Shown here: positions 19,141 through 36,700 of the stretch, one piece after another
How positions within the stretch are numbered: the first letter of the stretch is position 1
Layout: each line of letters starts with the position of its first letter
Assembly (NCBI GenBank): GCA_008632985.1
Contig: QPGO01000009.1
Span: 310,001 to 374,000 of the forward strand
Length of the DNA: 64,000 nucleotides
From: Psammoneis japonica
Lineage: Eukaryota
Direction: 5' to 3'
Made by a program: the position numbers and the translations under genes
The notes under the pieces: model-generated
The model's input: the letters and a program-made list of their open reading frames with translations, nothing else
Told to the model about the DNA's origin: nothing
Database searches by the model: none

Positions 19141-19902
19141 GTGAGAAAAAAGAACACACTCATGCTGAGTTTGCATTGATGCACATCTCTTCAAGTGCTG
19201 CTTGCACCATGCATGCACGCAAGTGAAATGCACTGTGAGTGTTGATGTCCCCCCGTGCCAGTGCAGTCTGCCCTCACATTCTCTGCATTTCCCAACTTCA
19301 TCACAGATCCACACCCACAACTGCGTTCAATCTGATGCAGAGCTCCATCCAGTGTGTCAATTGTTGGCATGTTTTCATTTTGCGTGGGGTGTCACAAAGG
19401 CAGTCATTGAAACAACACAGAGCTGCAACACAGCAACAACATCAGCGCGCCTCTCTCACAACAGGTTCGTCGGCTGCCATGGCTTCTGAAGTGGCCAAGA
19501 GTCCAGCAACAGATGCAGCATTGACCAATCCAGTTTGAGCCACTTTTGCCAGATCAACAATTCCTGGTTTTCACATGGTGCATGTCACAGCACTCAAGAG
19601 TCTGGGCAATGGATCGCCTCTTCAGCATCATGTCTTCTCCTCCGCCACAAATCACAGCTGAGCATCTTCTCTTTTTCTCTTTTCTTTTCTTCTTTTCCTC
19701 TCTCACTTTTCCTTTTCTCCTTTTCAGTTGATTCTTCTGGGCTGCCTCCGGCGGCCACCTCTTTCATTCTTCCCACATGCCAAAATCTCGATGCAGTGTT
19801 GTTGTCAAAGAAGAAGAAGAAAAAAAGAAACCTCTCGCTCTCTCGAACCCTGTGACATTTTCTCCGCAAATAGTAGAAGTACAAACAACACAGAGTGGCT
19901 GG

Positions 19903-23413: not shown

Positions 23414-25353
23414 ATGCTTGTCCTTGCCTGGAAGATAGATGCGCGCGATTTACTCTATGTAGCGAGGAGTGCCGAGAGCAATCGGCTCTTCATTCCGAAT
23501 GTCGACTTGATCTTGTTGGCTTGATTGACAGCCACCACAAAAAGACGAAAGTGTGTGTTGATAAGTGATACAGGCAGGTTTGCTGCCTTTGAAGCAATCG
23601 TTTTCGATTTATTTCATTCTGTGTTCTCTGTATGGGCCTGCTTGTCCTCTCGAACGAACTTAAGCTGGCTGGACCTGCTCAGATAACATCAAGGAAACAC
23701 AGCAATGAGGTTACTCACTATATGGCATGTCATAGCAAAGTCTATGACAGGCAAACCTCTCTTGCAATAACCAGTTGCACGTTTTCGTGATGGTCCAAGA
23801 TACGACGTAATTCATGACCAGCGCAAGCCGCTACTTTCTTCGACTGGACACCATTTTTTTCAAAATGATAGACGGCAACTTCTCCCCCCCCTCGGGTACA
23901 GATAACGCGAAAGGGATCGACAGGTACGAAGTGCAAAAACCTTGACAAGCTCCATATCCGCCCCGACACAGACTTTCGGACAAGTAATGCGAAACAAAGA
24001 GCTGATAACTTGTCTTGATGAATTCTTCAAATCGCCACAGTAGCAGCACAAAAGGTGGCAGCGTCTTATTCGAGTTCTTGGATGAGTCACGGTACAACAG
24101 ATGTTGCTCTTGCGTATAGCTTTCGATACGATGGAAGGAGGAAGGGGCGTATTCTCAAACAAAACGGCAAAAGCTTCCGCGGCCATTTGAGATAATCTCG
24201 AGTTGGTCTGAACACTGTCCGCGGCACTCAATCCTGTCGACTGCATGGAGCTTAAAAAAAGGATTGGTACTGACCACCACACTCATGGAAGAATACGATA
24301 CTTCAAAGTAACGCGTTTCATATCGATTCAATCCATTTCTGATCAGCTCCGTTGTCGGACATAAGCTGAACTTCTGCTTCATACTTTTCGTCAGCCTTGG
24401 TCCTGTAGTCGCTGTGCCATTAGTTATCTAATGAATTCTCTCCATAACAAGTGAGTCTGTAAAAACTGTGTCATCGCGATCAGGTGCATGCCTCCCGCAG
24501 TCGCACCAGCTTGGAGTTTCTTTCGTCTAGGCTGTCAAGAGAGACATGTGCGGCCGGTACTTTAACGCATCTGCTGTTGATGCATCACCATTGAGAAGAT
24601 CACCGATCACCCTCATCTGTCACAATTTCATCCATGGGCGCTCCCCTCCGACGGCGAAGCTCTATTTTGCTGCCCATCTTTATCCCAGCTCTCTTCCACA
24701 AGCCGCTTCCTGCGTTTGAAAATCAAGCATTCAATCGGACCCAAACCCTTTTCAATGGACGAAATAGTCTAGCAGCCTTGACATCCTCCTCTTTGGTTAC
24801 ATCACAAGCGTAGGCCACGGAATTTGCAATTTCAGATGATTCGGCGGCCTATTTGTATAGAGAAAGATGTGCGCACTACAATCGATCAATATAATGTACC
24901 TGCCTTGACCTTATCGAGGCGGGTGCTTGACATATAGCAACTGTGCGACGTATCGCTTGTCAAATCGTTATAGTTATAGAGTGGTAGGCCTCCGAAGTTA
25001 ACACACCATGGTGAGGTGTGTTTTTTTGAGCGGTGGCGGTGGGGATGTACCGGTAAAAGGTTATGAGAGTGCCAATTACAAATCAGCGTACGAAGGACGG
25101 TCGCCAGGTTGCGTTTTCGCGCGAGTACGCACGCAGATGAGAACGCCATCATTCTCCCTCCGAGCTCGCAAAAAAAGCAAGGCGATGACGAAGCTCCTCG
25201 CTTCCCCTCACTTCCCCTCACTTCCACACAACACACCCACTGCAGTGAAACAAGCAACGTTGTGATTGAAACAAAACAAATATATAATGATTTCGCTGTA
25301 AAACAATTCGTTTGAGAGAGTGAGCAAAGCGCCACCAATTCGTCGTCGTCGTC

Positions 25354-26452
25354 ATGGTGTTGTTTGCACGTCAAGGCCGACGACGCAGCCCCACCGTTGC
25401 CAGCACTGTGGATGGAATCGTCAAGCATCGCCCCAAAAGGAAAACGATCCTTCTCGTCAAGGTCCTTCCGTTTGCTCTGTTTGTTTGGTACACAATATGG
25501 ATCAGTCATCATTACAAGAGACACTGTCTGAACAACAAGAGAGTAACAGTCATGTCAAGTTCAACGGCAGAGTGTTGGTGTGCGTGACGGGTCAAGTGGA
25601 GCGATTGATTCTCAAGCGCAAGGTGGAAACGCTGCTCATGCCACTGCAAAAAAAGTATGGCTTTGTCGTGGATGTCATTTTGGCACTCACGGACGACGAC
25701 GAGTCTCGTTATACCAATCCGGAAAATGGCAAGGTCCGCGTTGCAGAATTTGCGTCCTTTTCCAACGCAGTGTCGTATTTGGAGAATCACGATGAATTCT
25801 TTCGCGTCATCAACAAGAAAAGCATTCCTCCCTCCACGATATTTCTGTCAATCCACAATATCTCAATCAAATGGACAAGGGTAAAATGTCAGCCGAATGG
25901 AGAAAGAACCGAGTGGAAAACCATGCGAGACAATATCATGCTCTTGCACAGTGTTCCAAGTCCTTGTTGGATAGCGGTGGCTCCTTTGATCAGTACGAGT
26001 TTATGGTTCGAATTCGTGACGATGTCGCCTTGGAAAAACCAATGTCGCATTTACAGCCCTTGCTACGCTTGTTGGGAGACGACTCGGTCGTGACGAGCGA
26101 CTGTCGAACGCATGGTGGAATCAATGATCGCGTGGCCTTGGTGTCTCCCAGCGTCGCACAAGAATACTTGGAACGGCCCATGGAGAATTTCCATTCCAAA
26201 CCCATTCATGCCAAGGTGCATAATCCTGAATCCTATCTCTATTATACCTACCACGATCCACCGACCGATGGAGATACGCCCAATCAAGACGTTTTGAATA
26301 TTGTACAAACACCGCTCTTGCGTGGCGTAGTCAAGTACGTGACCAACCACAAGGGTAAGGCGACTCTTTCCGACAAGGAAGACATTTCGTATTGTCCCAC
26401 GAGGATGTCCAAGTTTTTGGATTTGTTTCGCAGTGAACACGAGTGGAAATGA
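25354..26452 (+). CDS. Type II membrane, glycosyltransferase-like hypothetical protein with two apparent frameshifts
   Basis: N-terminal TM (25354 frame), RVLVCVTGQVERL (25320 frame), VRIRDDV / HGGINDRVALV / NPESYL (25871 frame). Confidence 0.5.
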
Positions 26453-26534
26453 AACGTGTGTGTTTTGCTCTCGACTGTAGTATCCTTGAGTGCTGCGTTT
26501 TGCAAAGGACCTGTCAAGCAAATCTAACAATTGC

Positions 26535-26845
26535 AGTAGTGGAAAGGCTGTTGCTCGAGCATACCGGTACTGGTAGTAGCCTTGAGTAAAAACGTCTCCA
26601 CTCGCTATTTCGTTTCAAGATCTTGAGTAGTAGAAATGCTGTTGCTCGAGCAGTAGCCTTGAGTAGCTTTGCACTTTACTTTGTCTGGACAAAAGCAAGA
26701 ACGTCTCCACTCACTGTTTCGTTTCAAGATTTACAGTAGTAGAAACGCTGTTGCTCGAGCAAAGTAGCCTTGAGTAGCTTTGTACATTTCTTTGCTCGGA
26801 CAAAAGCAAGAATGTGTCCAATCGCTGTTTCGTTTCAAGATCTAG
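26535..26845. repeat. ~110-bp tandem repeat (about 3 copies)
   Basis: GTAGTAGAAACGCTGTTGCTCGAGCA...GGACAAAAGCAAGAACGTCTCCACTC...CGTTTCAAGA; same unit as 29950-30615. Confidence 0.9.
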
Positions 26846-26982
26846 CTCTTGAGTCTCCTCGTCGGCGGGTTTCAACGCGCTTCCTCCCTCTGCTGCACCG
26901 TCGGCAAATTGATCCAAAATCAAGTCGCTGTCGGGAAGCACCATGGCTCCACCATAACATTCAAGAACCGGCACGGTACCCG
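26842..26982 (-). pseudogene. Internal fragment copy of the GST gene at 30668-31479
   Basis: Near-identical to ~30975-31115 (PVLECYGGAMVLPDSDLILDQ). Confidence 0.85.
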
Positions 26983-26999
26983 TGTACCGTACTAGTAGC

Positions 27000-27375
27000 T
27001 AGCCCTAATCGATGAACTGTCAATGCTGCCAACTTCCATCTCATGTACTAACCATGCCGCTCGCGTTGCTCCACACTGAACACCTACCTACTCTAGAGAG
27101 GTTCCCCGGGTTTTAGCCATCTAGATCTGGACATGCCCGAGCAGGACGCGAGAAATGCGGTTCGTGGTCTTTTTCAAGAGAACGCTTTTGAGGATGAGCG
27201 TGTCAGGGGCATGCTGATTGAAAAGGGTTGTGTGGATTTGGAGGAAGCCTTGATACAACACAAGCAAAGAACTCACTTGATTCGAACGCTGGGCGGATAC
27301 GTTGATCAGAGTGGATCCAATCGCAAAAAGCTAGGACGGGATGCGACACTCAAAGAGATCTTTGTGAGACTGTAA
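27000..27375 (+). pseudogene. NDUFA6: Truncated copy (intron end and exon 2) of NDUFA6
   Basis: Near-identical to ~31921-32289, lacks exon 1, has indels; EKGYMD->EKGCVD. Confidence 0.85.
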
Positions 27376-27422
27376 TTATTGCAGCAGTGGCAAGTGGTAA
27401 ACCCTTTATTATTGTTATTAGG

Positions 27423-28469
27423 TCAATGGAGATCTTTGCGAGACTGTAATTGCCTCTTCAAGATGCGAGACCTTTCGTTGGATGCAAGCTGACTGATTCG
27501 CCTGCAAAACATGTCTTGATATTTCGGGTTGGAACCTTTGAACCGTTTCATCTCACTGTGTGTTAGCTTGATGCTACGGATTTCTACTCCGTGGTCTAGC
27601 GTATTTCTGGTTATCAATGGAGGACGTCGCGGGAAGTTTACTTCTCTTGAAGTTGAGGCATTGGATGGAAGCGTTTCTATTTTGAATGTTAAGCGAGATG
27701 TCTCATCACACTCGTTGTCAAGGTCTTCAAAAGCTTGAGCTGTCCCAATTTCCTCAGCCTTCAACCTTTCCCATGCAAAAGAAGTCACATTATCTGTGAA
27801 ACATCCGTGCCATTCCTTTATGAAGGGAAGAGAGTCTATTACCGTTCCGTACCTTGATCGCACCAGAAATCCACGACAACGTGATTGAATCCTCTGCGCC
27901 AGAAGAAAACGTCGAGCAATTGAATTGCCTCTCCTCGCCAAAAATAAGTGGCAAACGGCTTGAATTTTTGGTACCACCTTCTCTTGATGTAAAACCTTCG
28001 CTGCTTGTCTCCCCAGTGCTCCCCTGAAGAAAGCCTGGAGGATGACAGTTCTATTTGAACCTCGCTGAAAGAGCGTGTTTGGCATATAAATTGAGTGTTC
28101 TTCGGGGCTCTTGTACCCACCATCAGTAAGCACATGCATCCAGATTTCGTCACAAATGTCACGGTCTACAAAACGATAGTAAGCGTCAATAGACCAGCTT
28201 TTGATTCGAAGGAGGTGCTCAATAACGAATGTTCTGTCCACGACACCAACTGCATTGCGCAGATCAAGATCGCTCTCGGGTCCAACAGAATTCAAACCAG
28301 CTTGAAGTATACAGGATATGCATCTTGCATGATAAACAGCATCCATGTGTCCGTCATCAAGACGGTGAGTCTTTGTGAATGGCAAGGACCCTCGCGGAAA
28401 ATTGGGCGGAATTACGTCGCAATCGCGATAGACACGCCACCGAAAGATCTCCAAGACCTCAATCAGCAA
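27423..28469 (-). CDS. IQ-motif-containing ORF, probably a fragment of a larger protein
   Basis: 348-aa ORF with KIQAVCHLFLARR and RIQSRCRGFLVRSRY; ends at the duplication breakpoint. Confidence 0.4.
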   Translation of the reverse strand: MLIEVLEIFRWRVYRDCDVIPPNFPRGSLPFTKTHRLDDGHMDAVYHARCISCILQAGLNSVGPESDLDLRNAVGVVDRTFVIEHLLRIKSWSIDAYYRFVDRDICDEIWMHVLTDGGYKSPEEHSIYMPNTLFQRGSNRTVILQAFFRGALGRQAAKVLHQEKVVPKIQAVCHLFLARRGNSIARRFLLAQRIQSRCRGFLVRSRYGTVIDSLPFIKEWHGCFTDNVTSFAWERLKAEEIGTAQAFEDLDNECDETSRLTFKIETLPSNASTSREVNFPRRPPLITRNTLDHGVEIRSIKLTHSEMKRFKGSNPKYQDMFCRRISQLASNERSRILKRQLQSRKDLH

Positions 28470-28784
28470 AATGTGATTATTCGAAAATCGAATAGAACTG
28501 ATGTCTGGTATGATATCAACACCATATACATTGTCTCCTACTTGTGAGATGTGGTCCAGTTCACCATGTACAACAGTATGGCCGAGCGAATCCGCCCCGT
28601 ACCTTTGACTTTTGGTGACAATCGCAGTGTTCGATCAATCAGAGAGTTTGGAGCAATGCATTGCGAGGGAAACTTCAAAGGTGGTGTCTAACTAGGAAGT
28701 TTTTTCGACGGCAGCACAACCATCGTCGTGCATCAATTTTGATGGATTTCCTCTAAATTGTGCGGATAGAAATTCAACGCCTCG

Positions 28785-29305
28785 CGGATCAATGCCCAAG
28801 CTCAACGCATTCTTCCTCTAATTGGGCAGGAACTCAACGCCTCCCTCTAAATAAATGTATGTCCAACGCTTTTACTGTAGTTTATTGAATGGCTAAATAA
28901 ATAGCTTTCAGACGTCAATGCCCAAAAAAACATCACAATGCCACAATTCCGGATCAATGCCAAGCTCAACGCATCCTTCTAATAAACAGCTTCTAAATAA
29001 ATGTATGTCCAACGCTTTTACTGTAATTTATTGAATTGCTAAATAAATAGCTTTCAGACGTCAATGCCCAAAAAAACATCACAATGCCCACAATTCGCGG
29101 ATCAATGCCCAAGCTCAACGCATGCTTCTTCTAATTGGGCAGGAACTCAACGCCTCCCTCTAAATAAATGTATGTCCAACGCTTTTACTGTAATTTATTG
29201 AATGGCTAAATAAATAGCTTTCAGATCAATGCCCAAGCTCAAATATCTAATTCTTACTTAAAACAAACGCATGCTTCTTCTAATTGGGCAGGAACTCAAC
29301 GCCCC
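28785..29305. repeat. AT-rich ~150-165 bp tandem repeat (about 3 copies)
   Basis: GGATCAATGCCCAAGCTCAACGCAT...CTAAATAAATGTATGTCCAACGCTTTTACTGT...AAATAAATAGCTTTCAGA repeated. Confidence 0.9.
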
Positions 29306-29308
29306 CCT

Positions 29309-29869
29309 GAATGGAGAAACAACTGAGTGGAAAACCATGCGCGAGACAGTATCTGCTCTTGCTAGCTTGCACAGTGTTCCAAGTCCTTGTTGGACAGCGG
29401 TGGCTCCTTTTATCAATGCGAGTTTATGGTTCGAATTCGTGACGATGTCGCCTTGAAAAGCCAATGTCGCATTTGCAGCCCTTGCTGCGCTTGTTGGGAG
29501 ATGACTCGGTTGTGACGAGCAACTGCCGTACGCATGGTGGGATCAATGATCGCGTGGCCTTGGTGTCTCCCAGCGTCGCACAAGAATACTTGGAACGGCC
29601 CACGGAGACTTTTATTCCAAACCCATTCATGCCAAGGTGCACAATCCGGAATCCTATCTCTGTTATACCTATCACGATCCACCGACCGAGATGCGCCCAA
29701 TCAAGCCGTTTTGAATATTGTACAAACACCGCTCTTGCGTGGCGCAGTCAAGTACGTGACCAACCACAAGGGTGAGGCGACTCTTTCCGACAAGGAAGAC
29801 ATTTCGTATTGTCCCACGAGGATGTCCAAGTTTTTGGATTTGTTTCGCAGTGAACACGAGTGGAAATGA
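29309..29869 (+). pseudogene. 5'-truncated copy of the 3' half of the gene at 25354-26452
   Basis: Near-identical to 25895-26452 with indels; same C-terminus DLFRSEHEWK. Confidence 0.9.
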
Positions 29870-29949
29870 AACGTGTGTGCGTTGCTCTCGACTGTAGCAT
29901 CCTTGAGCACTATGTTTTTGCAAAGGACCTGTCAAGCGAATCTAACAAT

Positions 29950-30615
29950 TACTGTAGTGGAAAAGCTGTTGCTCGAGCATACTGGTAGTAGTCTTGAGTA
30001 AAAAGGTCTCCACTCGCTCTTTCGTTTCAAGATCTTGAGTAGTAGAAACGCTGTTGCTTGAGCATAGTAGCCTTGAGTAGCTTTGTACTTTACTTTGTCT
30101 GGACAAAAGCAAGAACGTGTCCAATCGCTGTTTCGTTTCAAGGCCTACAGTAGTAGAAACGCTGTTGCTCGAGCCCAGTAGCCTTGAGTAGCTTTGTAGG
30201 GCACTACATTACTTTGTCCGGACAAAAGCAAGAACGTCTCCACTCGCTGTTTCGTTTCAAGATTTACAGTAGTTGAAACGCTGTTGCTCGAGCAAAGTAG
30301 CCTTGAGTAGCTTTGTACATTACTTTGCTCGGACAAAAGCAAGAACGTCTCCACTCGCTTTTTCGTTTCAAGATCTACAGTAGTAGAAACGCTGTTGCTC
30401 GAGCATACTGGTAGTAGCCTGAGTAGCTTTTGTACATTACTTTGTCTGGACAAAAGCAAGAACGTCTCCACTCACTGTTTCGTTCAAGATCTACAGTACT
30501 GTAGTATAAACGCTGTTGGTCGAGCATAGTAGTCTTGAGTATTAGCTTTGTACTTTACTTTGTCTGGACAAAAGCAAGAAAGTGTCCACTCGCTGTTTCG
30601 TTTCAAGATCTACAG
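29950..30615. repeat. ~110-bp tandem repeat (about 6 copies)
   Basis: Directly visible units, as at 26535-26845. Confidence 0.9.
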
Positions 30616-30667
30616 TGTCAATTACCATAGCACGAAGGGTAATGATAGAATAACACAAGCGTTTGAG

Positions 30668-31479
30668 TTACCACCACCACCACCAGCTACTTTGTATTGT
30701 TTTTGAAAAGGCTTTGGTTGTCCGCATTTCTCTAGCCACGCACCAATCTTGGTGCAACCTTGCTTTTTCAACGGACCAAACTCGTCGTTGAGCCGCCAAA
30801 CAAAGGGAAACAAGGCACAATCCGCAACAGTCACCTTTTCTCCGCACAAGTACGGTCCAACGACATTGCCATCCATTCTTTGAAGCAATTCAATAACTTT
30901 CTTTCTTCCTCCTCCCAACACCGCATTCTTTCCCACGGGAATTAGCTTTGCCAAGTGGTCTCGCCATTTTGTAACTAGCTCTTGAGTCTCCTCGTTGTCG
31001 GGTTTCAACGCGCTTCCTCCCTCTACTACACCGTCGGCAATTTGGTCCAAAATCAAGTCACTGTCGGGAAGCACCATGGCTCCACCATAACATTCAAGGA
31101 CCGGCACGGTACCCGCTGGATTTAATTCCCAAAACCAATCGGGCTTTCCGCCTGCGCCATACAGTGAAACCTCCTTCATTTCGTACGGAGCATTGACAAG
31201 CTCGAGAGCGATCCATGCCTTTTGTGCAAATGGACTGGAATAATAATAATAATTTCAACGAGTAAGTCCTTGGAGCAACAACCACTCTCACAACATTGCA
31301 AACATACACAAAACATACCACATTTTGTTAGTGACAAATGTCGTTGTGGCAGGGCTCTGTCGTACCGCAAAGTTGGCAACGTCGGCCATACCCTTCGACA
31401 TTATCAACTGCAAAGGTCGACACGAGGGTAAGAGCGACAAGAGGAGGGACAAACGGAGCCGGCGGCTGCGGATGCTCAT
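30668..31479 (-). CDS. Glutathione S-transferase (Cys-type, omega/lambda/DHAR-like), two exons
   Basis: Intron 31318-31235 (GT..AG) restores TNKMCPFAQKAWIALE; KPDWFWELNPAGTVPVL; TVADCALFPF; C-terminus AFSKTIQSSWWWWW* needs one frameshift near 30715. Confidence 0.85.
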
Positions 31480-31652
31480 GGCTCATGGTGGAGGGAAAAT
31501 GATGAAACTGAAAATGAAAAAAGCAGGTGCGACGAGAATATAGTATACATCGTCGAAGGTTATTATTTACGTAGAAACGTACGAAAGACAGCGGTACAAC
31601 ACTCAGCACTCCAAAAAAAGTGCCGAACGACGCTTCGCTTGTTGTCACCACC

Positions 31653-32289
31653 ATGCCGATTGAACTTCAGCTTGCGTTAAAGGCTCGTCAGGTGGCAGCC
31701 TCCAACCCGGCGGCACAATTATATCGTAGCATTGCAAAGTGAGTTCCTCTATTGTGGATGTTGTCGTTTGATAGATACAAGATCGGGGAGACAATGTTCG
31801 TTCGTCACTCACTGACGTCGGGTGTGTTTTGGAGAAGATTCCAGATTCCGTGATAGTCTAGTCCGAGAGAGTTTCTTCGCTCATTTGTTACTGTAGAGCA
31901 GGTCGAGAGAGCATCTACTCTAGCCCTAATCGATGAACAATCAATACTACTAACTGCCGTCTCGTGTGCTAACCATGCCTCTCGCTTTGCTCCACACCTA
32001 CTCTAGGGAGGTTCCCCGGGTTTTAGCTATCTACGATCTGGACATGCCCGAGCAGGACGCGAGAAATGCGGTTCGTGGTCTTTTTCAAGAGAACGCTTTT
32101 GTCAAGGATGAGCGTGTCAGGGACATGCTGATTGAAAAGGGGTATATGGATTTGGAGGAAGCCTTGTTGCAACACAAGCAGAGAACTCACTTGATTCGAA
32201 CGCTGGGCGGATACGTTGATCAGAGTGGATCCAATCGCAAAAAGCTAGGACGGGATGCGACACCCGAAGAGATCTTTGCGAGACTATAA
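31653..32289 (+). CDS. NDUFA6: Complex I LYR-motif subunit B14/NDUFA6, exons 31653-31738 and 32007-32289
   Basis: AAQLYRSIAK|EVPRVLAIYDLD...VKDERVRDMLIEKGYMDLEEALLQHKQRTHL; in-phase GT-AG intron. Confidence 0.85.
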
Positions 32290-33169
32290 TCATTACAGAA
32301 GCGCCAAGTAGTAAACTCTTTATTATTAGTAGTAGTAGTAGGTCAATGGTTAAACATGCGGTTCTTTGACGTATTCTAGCCAATCGTCAACCATACGGTA
32401 TGCCAACCGCAAGGAAGGATTGGAGATGATTCGCGCGCCAGAAGATTCAAATCTTCCAAAAGCTACCCGCACCACCTCCACAATTGAGAGAAAAATCTAG
32501 ACTAGTCCACAACTTGCACGTGCGGTTTCGCAACGTAAAGGATACAGCCAGAATATGCTACGACATAGATATCCGTCTTGCTTTAAAAGACTGACGACCG
32601 CCTCATACTGTAGAAATGCGCATGAGCGAGCTAGAAGTAGTACTAAGGTATTGTAAATTGTAAAGAATTGCAAGCGGACGTTTTAGGAACTCTGTTTTCT
32701 ATTCCTTTTATGTGAGACGTGTTTTTATTGTCTCTCTAGAGAGGTATGATTTGTATTTTTTCGTAGGAGCCTTGTAAAATTATTGCTCCCAACGAATGCT
32801 CTATTCTCTTCCGTCAATGTTTCAACAACAAGCTTGACTTCCGAAGCGACACGACTTACATGATGCAATGCGAGCCTGAATTAGAGTGTGGTCAATGAAT
32901 TCTCTTTCGTCAATGTTGCCTCTCTGTTTCAACATGACGTCCGAAACGGCCTCGGCTTACAATACTGCGAGCCTGAATTCTTGAGCTGTAAAAGCGAACC
33001 GACATGGTGCAAACGGCAGAGAAAGCGCGTTCTCTATTAGATTGCAATGTTCTTGGACCCAGGCGTCATCAATATTCCGAGTACTAGCCTTCATATGGTC
33101 TGACATGGTCACCGGATGTCGTAACAAACACCTCTTCGGAAGGACTTGTTGGTGGAACAGGTGGGGGCA

Positions 33170-33790
33170 TCTGGTGAGTTTTAGCTACTGCTTCGAGACT
33201 ACCACACAGGTAGCCCTACTAGGCAACCCCACGACTGACGTAATGCCCCCCTTGGTGAAGACGTTGGCGAGTGTTGCGCTACTGCTTCGTGACTATCGGT
33301 AAAGGCTGATTGCCCGGTCCGCCGATGCCCTATTGGGTAGCCCCGTCTAACGTCCACCTTGCCTTTGCGGCAAAATTCGTTCTTCTCCCAACCAATGGAT
33401 ATGTGTGCGAGTTGTTGTGCCACTGCTTCGTGACTATGAATAATTGACGAGAGGCTGAAGCCTTCACATCTACTCATGCCCTAATAGGTGGCCCCGCAAT
33501 CTAACATTCCGTACTGTGAATTCGTGTGCGAGTTCGCGTTACTGCTTCGAGTCAGGATAATTGACAAGAGGCCGTCTCGGGTTGCGAGACTGAGTGCCAC
33601 GTCTATCCAAGTCCTAATGAGTAACCCCGCTTCCACGTTCACGCCGCCCCATGGCAGCAAAAGCCACAACAAGTCAAGTACGAGGATTTGCTACTGCTTC
33701 GGGTAGAGCAATTGACAAGAGGCCGTCTCTTATTCCAACGTTGTTGGGAGACTGAGTGCCACGTCTGCTCAATCCTAATGGGTAGCCTCG
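33170..33790. repeat. Degenerate dispersed/tandem repeats
   Basis: CTACTGCTTCG variants recur about 5 times; TTGACAAGAGGCCGTCTC...GAGACTGAGTGCCACGTCT occurs twice. Confidence 0.5.
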
Positions 33791-36700
33791 CATTGCTGCT
33801 GTGCTTTTCAAAACGTCCTTCTTGGTGAATCCAATCCCAAAGCACAATCAGTAAATCGCCTCGCCTTGAATATCCCAGACCGCCGTACCGCCGTGCCGCA
33901 ACCTAGACACGAGCACCTCAACGTATCCGCTTCTTGCCCACAACCACGGTGAATGATAATTCTGTCTCTGTGTACGTACAAGAAGGCAAGAGCGAGTTGA
34001 GTGGATGAAATACAAAAGAAAAAGGAACAACACGATACACGATCACGACAAGAACACACGTACCTTAATCTGCAACGACAAGGCCGGCAGCAAGCAGAAC
34101 GCCCATGGCCACTGCAACGAGCGCCATGGTCAAAAGAGAAACACAATCAACTCCTCCATTTTACTGCCGTGTTGTTTGAGTTGATTGTCAGAATTATGAG
34201 CGAATCGAGAGCGAACAGATTTCTGCATCGGATTGTTCTTGTACCAGAAGCACGTAAAATCCACGGAGCCTCAGTCCTCGGTCTTCCACGACTCGTGTGC
34301 TCTCGGTGCCTGGCAGGTTTCGACAACTTATCCTCTTGTGGGATCAGATATTTTCAAAAATGTCGGAACCGGTACTGGCATGCCGATCTTCCCAAACCAG
34401 CGGCAAATCGATCGCGAGCGTCATGGTGAAGTTTCTCGTTCTTTGATTTGATATTGTGTTGTTGTGTGGTCGCGCGTTGGGCGTTAGTCATCAGATCTTT
34501 GCGGACGCACATCAGACGTAGATTTCGAACATTTCATTTTTTATGAGCATGAATGTTATTTTGTCTTGACATCTTTCGGATCTTCCATCTCGTGGAATGC
34601 TGCATCGATCTTTACCGAGCTTCTGTTGGGAAAGAGACTACTAGAGTGGTCCCGTGCAAACAGATTTCCATGTAGAAGGAGGTCCGCGGCGCTGTGTGTT
34701 CGGGGATGGGGCCTACGACACGATTTGTCTTTGTTTCTGGCTCCTTCTCAAAGATCGCACTTGGCCTAAAACAGCTCTTGTCCATCTTTTGTGTTGTAAA
34801 AGATCTCTTTTCAACGGGATCCAGCGATGAGAAAAGCTGACAAAGATTGCAGCAGACAAGCAGTGTCAGCAGCTGCCATGGCATTGGATGCTTTTAGGCA
34901 ATGTTCTTGAATCATCATTTGGTGGTTGCAATCGCTCGCAGTTGTTTTCTGCTGGCAATGTCTTGTCAGAGAGCATGCACACAGTCCATCCAGAGATGTC
35001 TCAGGACAGCCTCATGCGTTGACCTCGCAAGTTGAGTGACTTCCTTGTCAAAATTCGTCTTGACCTGAACGAAACCGTTTGGCAATGCTGAAAAGGCGAT
35101 CGCATCAACATCCAACCAAAAAAACACACTGCAACAGTCTCTTCTCACCAAAGCAACAGGCAAACGATGCGACCGCATTTGTCACAAAACGTTGTCCACT
35201 GATTTTTCCTTGTCCAAGGCTGAGAGAACCATTCCCACAATGCAACAGACTTGCCACAGGGCTCCTCCACCTGCGCCATCTAGACTGCAACATCAATGCT
35301 CACATTTTCAAGAAGCACGCAACACAAGCCACACAGCGCATTTTGAGCACTGGGGACAGAGAAGCAGGTCCGCTCGACGATGTCAAATTCTCCGTGATCT
35401 TACGAAGATCCACAAGCAGTGGCATTGTTGATGGCTAGAATGGCATTCTTCTGCCCCGAATCTTGCCTCTTGTAAGAAGGGCGTCAGCAAATCGTAAAAT
35501 TTCCCTTCTTCAAACTGCTCCAGGTGCTCGATTGTCATGCAAAGAGATCGGTGGCGAAAAACAGAATCACACGGGTGCTCGATTGCCCCCCAAATTGATC
35601 GGTCATGTTTCAATCAAACCACAAGTTGGGCGCATGAGCTGATCTGCAGCAGAGGAGGAATCGAAGAAGTGAGGCTCTCCATGTCAGTGGAGCAGCCGTT
35701 GACACTCTTGGAGTTGCTGCTGTTGTTCCCTGATCGCTGTTGGATGATTCGTTGCTGCCGCTGCTGCTGCAGGAATCGAGGCATCAGTTCTAGCTGATCG
35801 TTGAATGTCACTCTGTTGCAGGGAAGTGACAGCAAAGATGATGGTCATTGGATTGAAACCAACAAAAAGGATTCCCAAATGGCAGTGCAACGTTGGTTGC
35901 GAGTGCACTGGAGCAAAACAGGGATTCAATGGCAGGATCCCGTGCAGCGGCGCTTCTTCGAATGACAGTCTTCGTGACAGTCCTGGCATTGGGCGAGCTC
36001 TTGCTTGAGGTTTGCAATGTCATCAAACATTTGTTCTCTTTCACAGAGAAACCCTTCCCTTTCGTTCAGAAGTTGATCCCTTTCACCACGCATTTGTTCC
36101 GCTTCGGGGTTGCGGTGACGAAAGATCCAGTTTGGGCAGAGACGGCGCATGACACAGATCACTGTTTCCCTGTGCTGTGCGGGTTGTCCAAAGCACTGAA
36201 CCTGAAATCATGCTGAAGATCGTTGCGACACAGGCGAATGTTGTGCAGGTCGACAGAACATCTTGGGGGACACGGTCCTTGACTTGGCGGAGGATCTTGA
36301 AGAATTTGCTGCTGGGCTTGACATTTGGAGCGCATTCTTGAAGGGCTTCATGGGCAGCCTTAACACCAAACGTAGAGACACCCACATCACAGTTGAAATT
36401 AACATGTGTTGTTCTGAAATCCTCCGTCAATGGCAAACTGATGAATGTCTTCTGGCGACAATCCGTCAATGGCAAACTGATGCATCTCTTCCGGCGACAA
36501 TCGGAACTTCCATCAACCTCAACAACACTCTCCTCCTCATTGTCCGTGTCCGCCTCTTCATCCGAAACATGCACTTGTGAATCTTGCCCTCCTCCGGCAA
36601 CTCGTCGTCATTGTTGTCATTCTGATCGAAAGCGGGCAGACTCACCACAGATGGATTGTCAGGGGGTGAGCCAACAAAACTCGCACAGAGCTCACGGACG

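Follow-up and report, generated by a model that had tools for sequence, protein, structure and literature searches.

In three broken gene copies within a window of 64,000 nucleotides of Psammoneis japonica DNA, A>G or T>C changes were found at 20/96 TA-step bases compared with 10/464 of the other A/T bases (P=6e-10), and it is very probable that a TpA-specific mutator acted at this locus. The best overall explanation, which we favour with moderate confidence, is that sporadic bursts of A->G change at TpA fell on silent duplicate DNA and were targeted via silenced chromatin. The window lies on contig C10; the other contigs mentioned are C41, C205, C239 and C317. The features of the locus were as follows.

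25302..26452, + strand: DUF7796-like gene, intact left copy (open reading frames, homologue P0005)
26453..26584, + strand: 3' flank of the intact left DUF7796-like gene (three-way comparison with the C205 copy)
26591..26844, no strand: left 111-bp tandem array, TA mostly retained
26842..26982, - strand: internal fragment of a GST gene (alignment and orthologues)
26999..27429, + strand: broken NDUFA6 copy with intron end, exon 2 and 3' UTR (alignment, homologues)
27451..28614, - strand: inserted fragment of a large host gene with an IQ motif (long open frame on C239)
28782..29308, no strand: 146-bp tandem array belonging to a dispersed repeat, TA intact here
29309..29869, + strand: DUF7796-like copy, 5'-truncated and frameshifted (alignment with the left gene)
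29870..30616, no strand: right 3' flank and right 111-bp array (alignment)
30622..31400 (upper end approximate), - strand: intact GST gene, DHAR-like, intron 31235-31318 (Pfam, homologues, X2 spliced joint)
31653..32289, + strand: intact NDUFA6 gene, intron 31739-32006 (homologue names, X2 spliced joint; start read off the sequence)

A sequence-only reading of this DNA had proposed that 25895-27430 and 29309-32350 are paralogous, and self-BLAST gave three matches between them: 25895-26844 with 29309-30266 (90.5%), 26842-26982 with 30975-31115 (94.3%) and 26999-27429 with 31920-32349 (88.0%). The GST and NDUFA6 labels of that reading were borne out by Pfam and homologues and by homologue names, respectively, while the gene it called glycosyltransferase-like gave no match in a Pfam search, DUF7796 being carried instead by the left gene's one homologue and some Atlas neighbours. 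The duplication was also described as young, which does not agree with the roughly 2% non-TA transitions, 1-2% transversions and several indels between the copies, nor with a third NDUFA6 copy at C10:477-478 kb that is far closer to the right copy than to the left. A repeated element on C10 shares the final 120-200 bp of the NDUFA6 piece; the single copy of this element that was inspected had no long open frame.

The left DUF7796-like gene and the right GST and NDUFA6 genes are matched by X2 contigs that lack both canonical introns; by these spliced joints X2 behaves like a transcript assembly, although none of the read runs containing the locus is catalogued as RNA. The X2 contigs have no cover over 26.7-30.4 kb, to which we give no evidential weight. 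The left DUF7796-like gene contains an apparent assembly frameshift 5' of its duplicated section, and the X1 and X2 contigs that span the gene require 2 gap letters apiece. Both contig sets possibly come from the assembled sample itself, and therefore are not independent biological support. The layout is that of a directly duplicated unit comprising the 3' half of the DUF7796-like gene, the 111-bp array, GST and NDUFA6, in which each gene has a single working copy on the outer side and the dead pieces form a strip on the inner side. A fragment of an unlinked gene and an array of repeats separate the two units; the order of these events is inferred.

All seven changes that had been listed for the DUF7796-like gene, and the three change clusters given for GST and NDUFA6, were present in the alignments. 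Direction was counted from TA-context transitions in the pairwise alignments as TA in the intact copy against TA in the broken copy, which gave 10 versus 3 for the right DUF7796-like region, 2 versus 0 for GST and 9 versus 3 for NDUFA6, in line with the estimates of about ten and at least ten changes. The three apparently reversed changes in the DUF7796-like region had a different meaning, as the left 3' flank lost TA in two of them and the right copy gained TA in the other. The right DUF7796-like copy has nine TA losses (29395, 29418, 29475, 29487, 29642, 29662, 29693, 29745 and 29774) together with four CG losses, and its 3' flank has two more (29898 and 29908). On the left, TA was lost at 26892 and 26895 in the GST fragment (VV->AA), at ten positions in the broken NDUFA6 copy including YM->CV at 27230/27232, and once by T>C in the first full unit of the 111-bp array. 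The truncated copies are changed as proposed, but not exclusively: 40-80 bp past the stop of the intact left gene, its 3' flank has undergone three A>G changes at TAC (26492, 26495 and 26533), all derived on the left. The targets were said to be non-TE duplicates and most are pieces of ordinary host genes, although 4/26 sites fall in the repeat-shared end of the NDUFA6 piece and so are not strictly in non-repeat DNA.

The excess was specific to the TA context. Divided by preceding base, the changes in the broken copies fell at 20/96 TA, 3/159 AA, 3/146 CA and 4/159 GA positions, with TA loss at 20/96 and TA gain at 3/145. TAY was changed at 16/53 sites compared with 4/43 for TAR (P=0.02). Twelve non-overlapping TA-normal duplicate pairs on C10, with an equal rate of other A>G changes (447/20397), served as controls and gave 106/2032 for TAY, against which the broken copies differ at P=2e-8. 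These pooled per-site tests were used in place of single-pair sign tests, which were non-significant (P=0.09 and 0.15). CG loss was mildly higher in the dead copies (9/135 versus 170/5143, P=0.048). The partial state noted previously, with many TA steps left, was evident from the same counts.

Polarity was assessed from the C205 copy, protein homologues and repeat-family copies. Voting within repeat families carries a bias wherever erased states are common to most copies, and is used as a rough background only. TA was ancestral at 16/26 sites, which agrees with the proposed direction TA->TG/CA, while 8 sites were without polarity and 2 leaned the opposite way: at 26895 the orthologues mostly have Ala or Ser, and at 27372 two older copies also have G. 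At four sites in the DUF7796-like gene the change is synonymous, and there the intact copy could have gained TA instead.

The altered pieces lie inside the locus among tandem repeats, as had been described, but the middle 1.9 kb was spared: the central host-gene fragment was changed at 4/58 TAY sites and the 146-bp array at 0/8 and 1/9, all at background level. This fragment is an internal control spared by the TA mutator, and its position in the very middle means that neither being dead nor being central is sufficient; a uniform central domain is ruled out by this insert. Working copies retain about 25 neutral TAY sites with at most one lost (P=0.008), and the left DUF7796-like gene retains 29 TAY targets (25896-26449), 9 of them synonymous. 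Selection against whole bursts could be an alternative cause of this sparing.

Neighbouring changes fell on the same strand in 84/140 cases compared with 50.5% expected (P=0.016). Changes in the left copy occurred at 10/17 sites on the + strand and 0/15 on the - strand (1/16 with the array site), a bias spotted post hoc, and an X1 contig contains an extra T>C at 26977 on the opposite strand. The right DUF7796-like copy had no strand bias (5/16 versus 3/13). Another C10 duplicate was changed at 43/94 TAY sites in its first 2.5 kb and at 0/106 beyond, and such changes ending part-way along a duplicate fit domains rather than whole-repeat pairing.

The same footprint was found along C10, where TA density is bimodal, with 317/848 kb windows below 0.15 and 453 at 0.4 or above, so that TA is erased from over a third of the contig. 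In erased DNA RTAY occurs at 0.5-2.6% of normal density and TTAA at 49%, and CG observed/expected drops together with TA observed/expected (0.33 versus 0.98). Nine other affected copies were changed at 215/494 TA, 22/635 AA, 24/528 CA and 6/510 GA positions, and the 146-bp dispersed repeat has copies outside the locus from which TA is erased. Spread from an adjoining erased block was considered but is not supported here, as the nearest erased 500-bp windows begin at 19251 and 34751 and are set apart from the locus by untouched DNA. A gradient next to erased DNA is present at C10:783-788 kb.

An assembly artefact, either haplotypes joined in tandem or miscalls at modified bases, is scarcely credible. 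There are small indel errors or alleles in the assembly relative to the reads, the gene pair on C41/C317 resembles a duplicated haplotype, and the read comparison rests on 40 of 231 read differences. However, depth was 47-63 on copy-specific contigs, 43-63 on the flanks and about 115 on shared words, and the copies are 6-12% apart with large deletions, whereas a single mismatch separates the C41/C317 pair over 3.3 kb. The short-read X1 contigs break off at 26025, 31090, 31069 and 31745, the limits of the 31-letter words common to the copies (25996, 31061-31098 and 31716), which, assuming k=31, suggests that both copies were present in the reads, as were the differences at 29395 and 29418 and one or both of those at 26892/26895. 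If pseudogenes simply decayed neutrally under a TA->TG/CA bias acting across the genome while selection held the working copies, this would account for the mild TAY excess in TA-normal duplicates (5.2% versus 2.2%) and for the non-significant sign tests of single pairs. This reading is nevertheless highly improbable and already largely refuted, as the locus stands about six times above background at equal non-TA divergence, the adjoining dead fragment decays without a TA excess, neutral sites in working copies are spared and TA density along C10 is bimodal.

Homology sensing like that of RIP, in which linked direct repeats pair, both copies are struck and bursts in working genes are purged by selection, appears unlikely but draws on several observations. 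The partner of every changed piece lies 3.4-4.9 kb away, while that of the spared middle fragment, which is at least as diverged (27 transversions/1149 columns), is on another contig; the single unique non-coding stretch that the two units share is changed in both (left 3, right 2), and RID-related DNMT4 genes occur in many diatoms (PMC9998398). Because three linked duplicate pieces were changed and an unlinked duplicate between them was skipped, the process could be a mirror image of RIP in diatoms, an adenine deamination that senses linked duplications of any origin and picks the dying host-gene duplicate in processive one-strand TAY bursts, an idea we regard as doubtful. Against pairing, 14/21 local C10 pairs at most 25 kb apart are unaffected, including 1.9- and 2.0-kb direct repeats (7/21 were affected at P<0.01, two of the seven from this locus), changes can end half-way along a repeat, the neutral sites of working copies are spared, and the target region in Bigelowiella natans is reported as single-copy (bioRxiv 10.64898/2026.01.13.699255). 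The same targeting might instead act through other chemistry, by polymerase-eta-like patch repair begun by 5mC deamination or by a miscoding modified adenine at TpA. Polymerase eta prefers WA, that is both TA and AA, and although CG loss accompanies TA loss and the short same-strand runs fit repair patches, AA was not elevated (3/159 and 22/635) and the alignment site lists of the locus contained no transversion excess at TA, making such chemistry improbable.

Under the preferred explanation of TpA bursts on silent DNA, a TpA-specific A:T->G:C mutator acted on the dead pieces in a single brief burst or a small number of them, as the statistical footprint indicates. It alters the A of 5'-TA on either strand with TAY preferred, and shows a modest tendency to favour neighbouring sites on the same strand. 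The chemistry is probably deamination of adenine in DNA to hypoxanthine, carried out by an enzyme of TadA/ADAT type and made permanent by replication, judging from the spectrum and the proposal made for B. natans. Given that a mutator acted here, targeting through silent chromatin is rather likely; this may be CG-methylated chromatin, patchy on duplicate DNA and excluded from transcribed genes. The genome contains 27 DNA-methylase matches, methylase types pooled, as well as ADAT2-like and TadA-like genes, which are of ordinary housekeeping types and are no evidence for the mutator enzyme.

The closest known system is B. natans, in which integrated NCLDV and virophage DNA undergoes TpA-specific hypermutation at a rate, taken from mutation-accumulation lines, about 1000-fold above baseline in some, and for which an ADAT-type deaminase (an ADAT2-like candidate) is proposed but unproven (bioRxiv 10.64898/2026.01.13.699255). 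As described in that preprint, both systems share A>G/T>C change at TpA alone, on both strands, regional and sporadic, in silent DNA; the direction TA->TG/CA; and the sparing of the rest of the genome. The host here is a diatom-like stramenopile while B. natans is a rhizarian, the targets are not viral DNA but fragments of spliced, conserved host genes, lying in a 3.4-kb strip with expressed genes on both sides, and a footprint alone stands in place of a measured rate. The TAY preference and same-strand runs have no counterpart in the passages of the preprint that were consulted, and its text does not mention diatoms; its supplements could hold strand or context data. Neurospora RIP likewise acts on duplicated DNA, duplicates of host genes among it, by transitions in a specific dinucleotide, and is tied to heterochromatin and 5mC (PMC11969663). 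Diatoms carry CG-methylated, DNMT5-dependent transposon islands, isolated marked repeats in an otherwise unmethylated genome (PMC9998398). CG loss goes along with TA loss at the present locus, but 5mC decay yields CG->TG/CA and cannot give TA->TG/CA.

RIP mutations run along one strand, and the process depends on RID/DIM-2 and on the premeiotic stage. RIP creates TA from CA, whereas the P. japonica process removes TA, and CA>TA changes were found at only 3/145 sites in the dead copies. RIP mutates both copies, and here both were changed in the 130-bp 3' flank while the coding parts and intron of the working copies were spared, possibly via selection on bursts. Linked duplications are efficiently struck by RIP, unlike the many that escape here, although these pairs may be of mixed age and expression.

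Within the literature covered, in which subscription journals were thinly represented, TpA hypermutation was described in the B. natans preprint alone and in no work on diatoms or host-gene duplicates. The partial state of this locus gives clues that fully erased blocks cannot: the TAY preference, the absence of an AA excess, the same-strand runs, and the escape of both the transcribed copies and an unlinked duplicate. With working and dead copies within 7 kb it forms a compact test bed. The locus shows that TpA hypermutation, previously seen on viral DNA in one unrelated alga, reaches the cell's own duplicated genes, and the process may therefore shape the fate of gene duplicates beyond silencing parasites.

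The duplicated sequences were aligned in three segments, for which the simplest history is direct duplication of a unit that began midway through the first gene and took in a 111-bp array, GST and NDUFA6.

25895-26844, aligned with 29309-30266 (duplication alignment 1)
26842-26982, aligned with 30975-31115 (duplication alignment 2)
26999-27429, aligned with 31920-32349 (duplication alignment 3)

The left unit contained the whole first gene but only a minor part of GST, and its NDUFA6 was missing the 5' part, while in the right unit GST and NDUFA6 were whole and the first gene was truncated. The DNA between the units comprised a host-gene fragment of 1.16 kb (the central insert) and an array of 146-bp units that is present elsewhere too. 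The host gene in question has its long open frame on another contig, C239, and carries an IQ motif and putative P-loop helicase motifs. The labels GST and NDUFA6 given by the sequence-only reading were borne out by domain match and homologues, the named homologues of GST being from diatoms. Its description of the first gene as glycosyltransferase-like was left unconfirmed, as a Pfam search of this gene gave no matches, and the tie to DUF7796 consisted of one homologue with the domain in a different part of the protein and 13% of the members of one Atlas neighbour set. An older 5'-truncated DUF7796-like copy with a related tandem array was located at the start of contig C205 (359-1325), with TA gains and losses in balance (3/21 vs 4/21). 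A repeated element of approximately 3 kb occupied 32226-35604, with almost all of its matches on C10, the contig that holds the window (copies at 37, 53, 267, 416, 477, 485, 522, 525, 600, 740 and 757 kb). These copies extended variably into the NDUFA6 locus, to 32505, 32460, 32297, 32255, 32226 and 31716, as in rolling-circle read-through capture.

The presence of both copies was examined using contigs assembled from two read runs of one sample (X1 and X2). The X1 contigs ended at 26025, 31090, 31069 and 31745, and the 31-letter words common to the copies began at 25996, spanned 31061-31098 and, for those shared with a third NDUFA6 copy, began at 31716. Every X1 end thus lay 29 letters from a border of shared words, as expected if both copies are present in the reads. 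Assuming k=31, we infer that the first break at 26025, with none earlier, requires both 25972/29395 and 25995/29418 to differ, each being a TA change, and that the GST contig running through 30999-31040 would need a difference at 26892 and/or 26895. Depth, which does not equate to copy number here, was 47-63 for copy-specific contigs, 43-63 for the flanks and approximately 115 for shared words. None of the 26 TA sites was among the 40 read differences listed, of 231 in total. The X2 contigs covered 25240-26414, at the left first gene, and also 30519-32328, from which the two canonical introns were spliced out, with few other letters changed; the intact copies are therefore the transcribed ones. 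Single-letter insertions or gaps relative to the assembly were found in both runs at 30718, 31479 and approximately 25770-25890, within intact genes, so some of their apparent frameshifts are probably assembly errors. At a deaminase locus elsewhere, C41:504740-508090 and C317:54248-57598 differed by 1 mismatch and 5 gaps in 3.3 kb, and are probably a retained alternative haplotype.

The excess of TA changes was counted with the intact copy as reference, over the first-gene CDS, the GST piece and the NDUFA6 piece. A>G/T>C changes affected 20/96 bases of TA steps in the dead pieces and 10/464 other A/T bases (P=6e-10), with 29/994 for all other transitions and 3/145 for TA gains. TA followed by a pyrimidine (TAY) was changed at 16/53 and TA followed by a purine at 4/43. 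The control comprised 12 non-overlapping C10 duplicate pairs, excluding the target locus, of at least 400 bp and 86-97.5% identity with TA observed/expected (o/e) of at least 0.5 in both copies, and was counted in both directions. It gave 106/2032 for TAY and 447/20397 for other A>G, a non-TA rate equal to that of the target (P=1.0) and a TAY rate sixfold lower (P=2e-8). A sign test on each pair alone was not significant (10 vs 3; 9 vs 3). The TA-context excess noticed in the truncated copies was thereby confirmed, and exceeded that of the control pairs.

The TA-context sites numbered 26, of which NDUFA6 contributed 10, GST 2, the first-gene CDS 9 and the 3' flank of that gene 5. The direction proposed by the sequence-only reading, from TA to TG/CA, held at 16 of the 26. 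With the C205 copy as outgroup the right copy was derived at 26241, 26276, 26328, 26357, 26481 and 26491, and the left copy at 26492, 26495 and 26533. The tyrosine at 25995 is retained in P0005, a protein homologue of the first gene, the YM of NDUFA6 is present in 4/4 homologues, and repeat-family copies supported TA at 27381, 27396 and 27414. Eight sites received no call (25972, 26053, 26065, 26221, 27025, 27028, 27030 and 27118) and two, 26895 and 27372, leaned against the proposal, with G in two family copies at the latter. Among 13 aligned GST homologues of 120 listed, the second valine was kept in 12, and the position of the first held Ala in 9, Ser in 3 and Val in 1. The third NDUFA6 copy groups with the right copy as its sister, so it gives no polarity. 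The reverse differences comprised gains in dead copies (26192, 27255), a loss in the right lineage (27377) and 27047.

TpA-specific, TAY-preferring transitions have struck dead pieces of host genes and spared their transcribed neighbours. Hits lay in 26492-27414 and 29395-29908. In the working copies approximately 25 TAY sites at synonymous positions, in introns or in UTRs were retained and at most one was lost (P=0.008 vs 16/53), a sparing that could alternatively arise by selection against whole bursts. Relative to its C239 source the central insert had 4/58 TAY changed and 2/57 in the opposite direction, which is background although the insert too is dead and at least as diverged, and TA was retained in the 146-bp array and, for the most part, in the 111-bp arrays. 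The earlier proposal is partly supported: a TA-directed process on non-TE host duplicates stands, while a position in the centre among tandem repeats is not by itself enough, as the insert and most of the arrays are spared. In the dead GST fragment an X1 contig carried T>C at the TA step at 26977, beyond the TA losses of the assembly, which may be a recent hit that is still polymorphic.

In nine other hit copies A>G followed T at 215/494, A at 22/635, C at 24/528 and G at 6/510. TAY changes in the left copy fell on the plus strand (10/17) and not the minus (0/15; P=0.0003, post hoc), the minus count becoming 1/16 when one array site was added (P=0.002), and the T>C at 26977 in X1 would be another change on the minus strand; in the right copy both strands were hit (5/16 and 3/13). 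Across 18 other C10 copies, neighbouring hits at most 60 bp apart shared a strand in 84/140 cases, compared with 50.5% by local shuffle (P=0.016), and in 75/123 at 30 bp and 100/169 at 150 bp, a modest sign of processive bursts.

The assembly, diatom-like by its GST homologues, comprises 91.4 Mb in 597 contigs, the window being G000:C10:310001-374000. TA o/e was bimodal, approximately 0.6 in gene-rich DNA and below 0.15 in window blocks 10-19.5, 35-43 and 59-61 kb; of 848 one-kb windows on C10, 317 were below 0.15 and 453 at or above 0.4. CG o/e fell together with TA (0.33 vs 0.98, 504 kb of C10). Surviving TA steps in this erased DNA were chiefly YTAR, with relative densities of 0.005-0.026 for RTAY and 0.49 for TTAA. 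On either side, over 4.5 kb separated the hits from the nearest erased windows. An inverted 10-kb pair (C10:109591-119715 and 189693-179569) of 99.3% identity and TA o/e 0.78 represents a very young element, as yet unhit. In a 5.3-kb duplicate (C10:771069-776406 and 783454-788688) the second copy had lost TAY at 43/94 in its first 2.5 kb and at 0/106 beyond. The hit part adjoins an erased block, giving a sharp domain edge within the duplicate.

These changes probably arose by adenine deamination in DNA, in bursts, with silenced chromatin as the putative target. CG loss in the dead pieces was slightly raised (9/135 vs 170/5143, P=0.048), in line with the CG methylation of silent islands described for diatoms (PMC9998398). 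The strongest rival is that linked copies are sensed by homology, which recruits the mutator; this would account for the skipped, unlinked central insert and the hits in both copies of the 3' flank, but not for the many spared local pairs, since 7 of 21 on C10 were hit at P<0.01 and 14 were not. ADAT2-like and TadA-like genes are present in the genome, as are 27 sequences matching the cytosine DNA methylase family (at C43, C10:682 kb, C59, C78, C27, C301, C297, C34 and others), and neither set links a particular enzyme to these changes. The methylase copies on C297 and C301 lie in TA-erased DNA and others in normal DNA, and those at 611 and 617 kb of C10 are broken.

RIP was rejected because the chemistry is reversed. 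In B. natans, 230/231 new mutations in two viral regions were A>G/T>C at TpA, for which an ADAT-type deaminase was proposed (10.64898/2026.01.13.699255). The locus behaves in a like manner, but the DNA struck there is foreign and here it is not. In the literature searched there was no report of TpA hypermutation in diatoms or on host duplicates. By analogy, the locus would be a variant of the B. natans system, in which a similar process strikes copies of host genes rather than foreign DNA.
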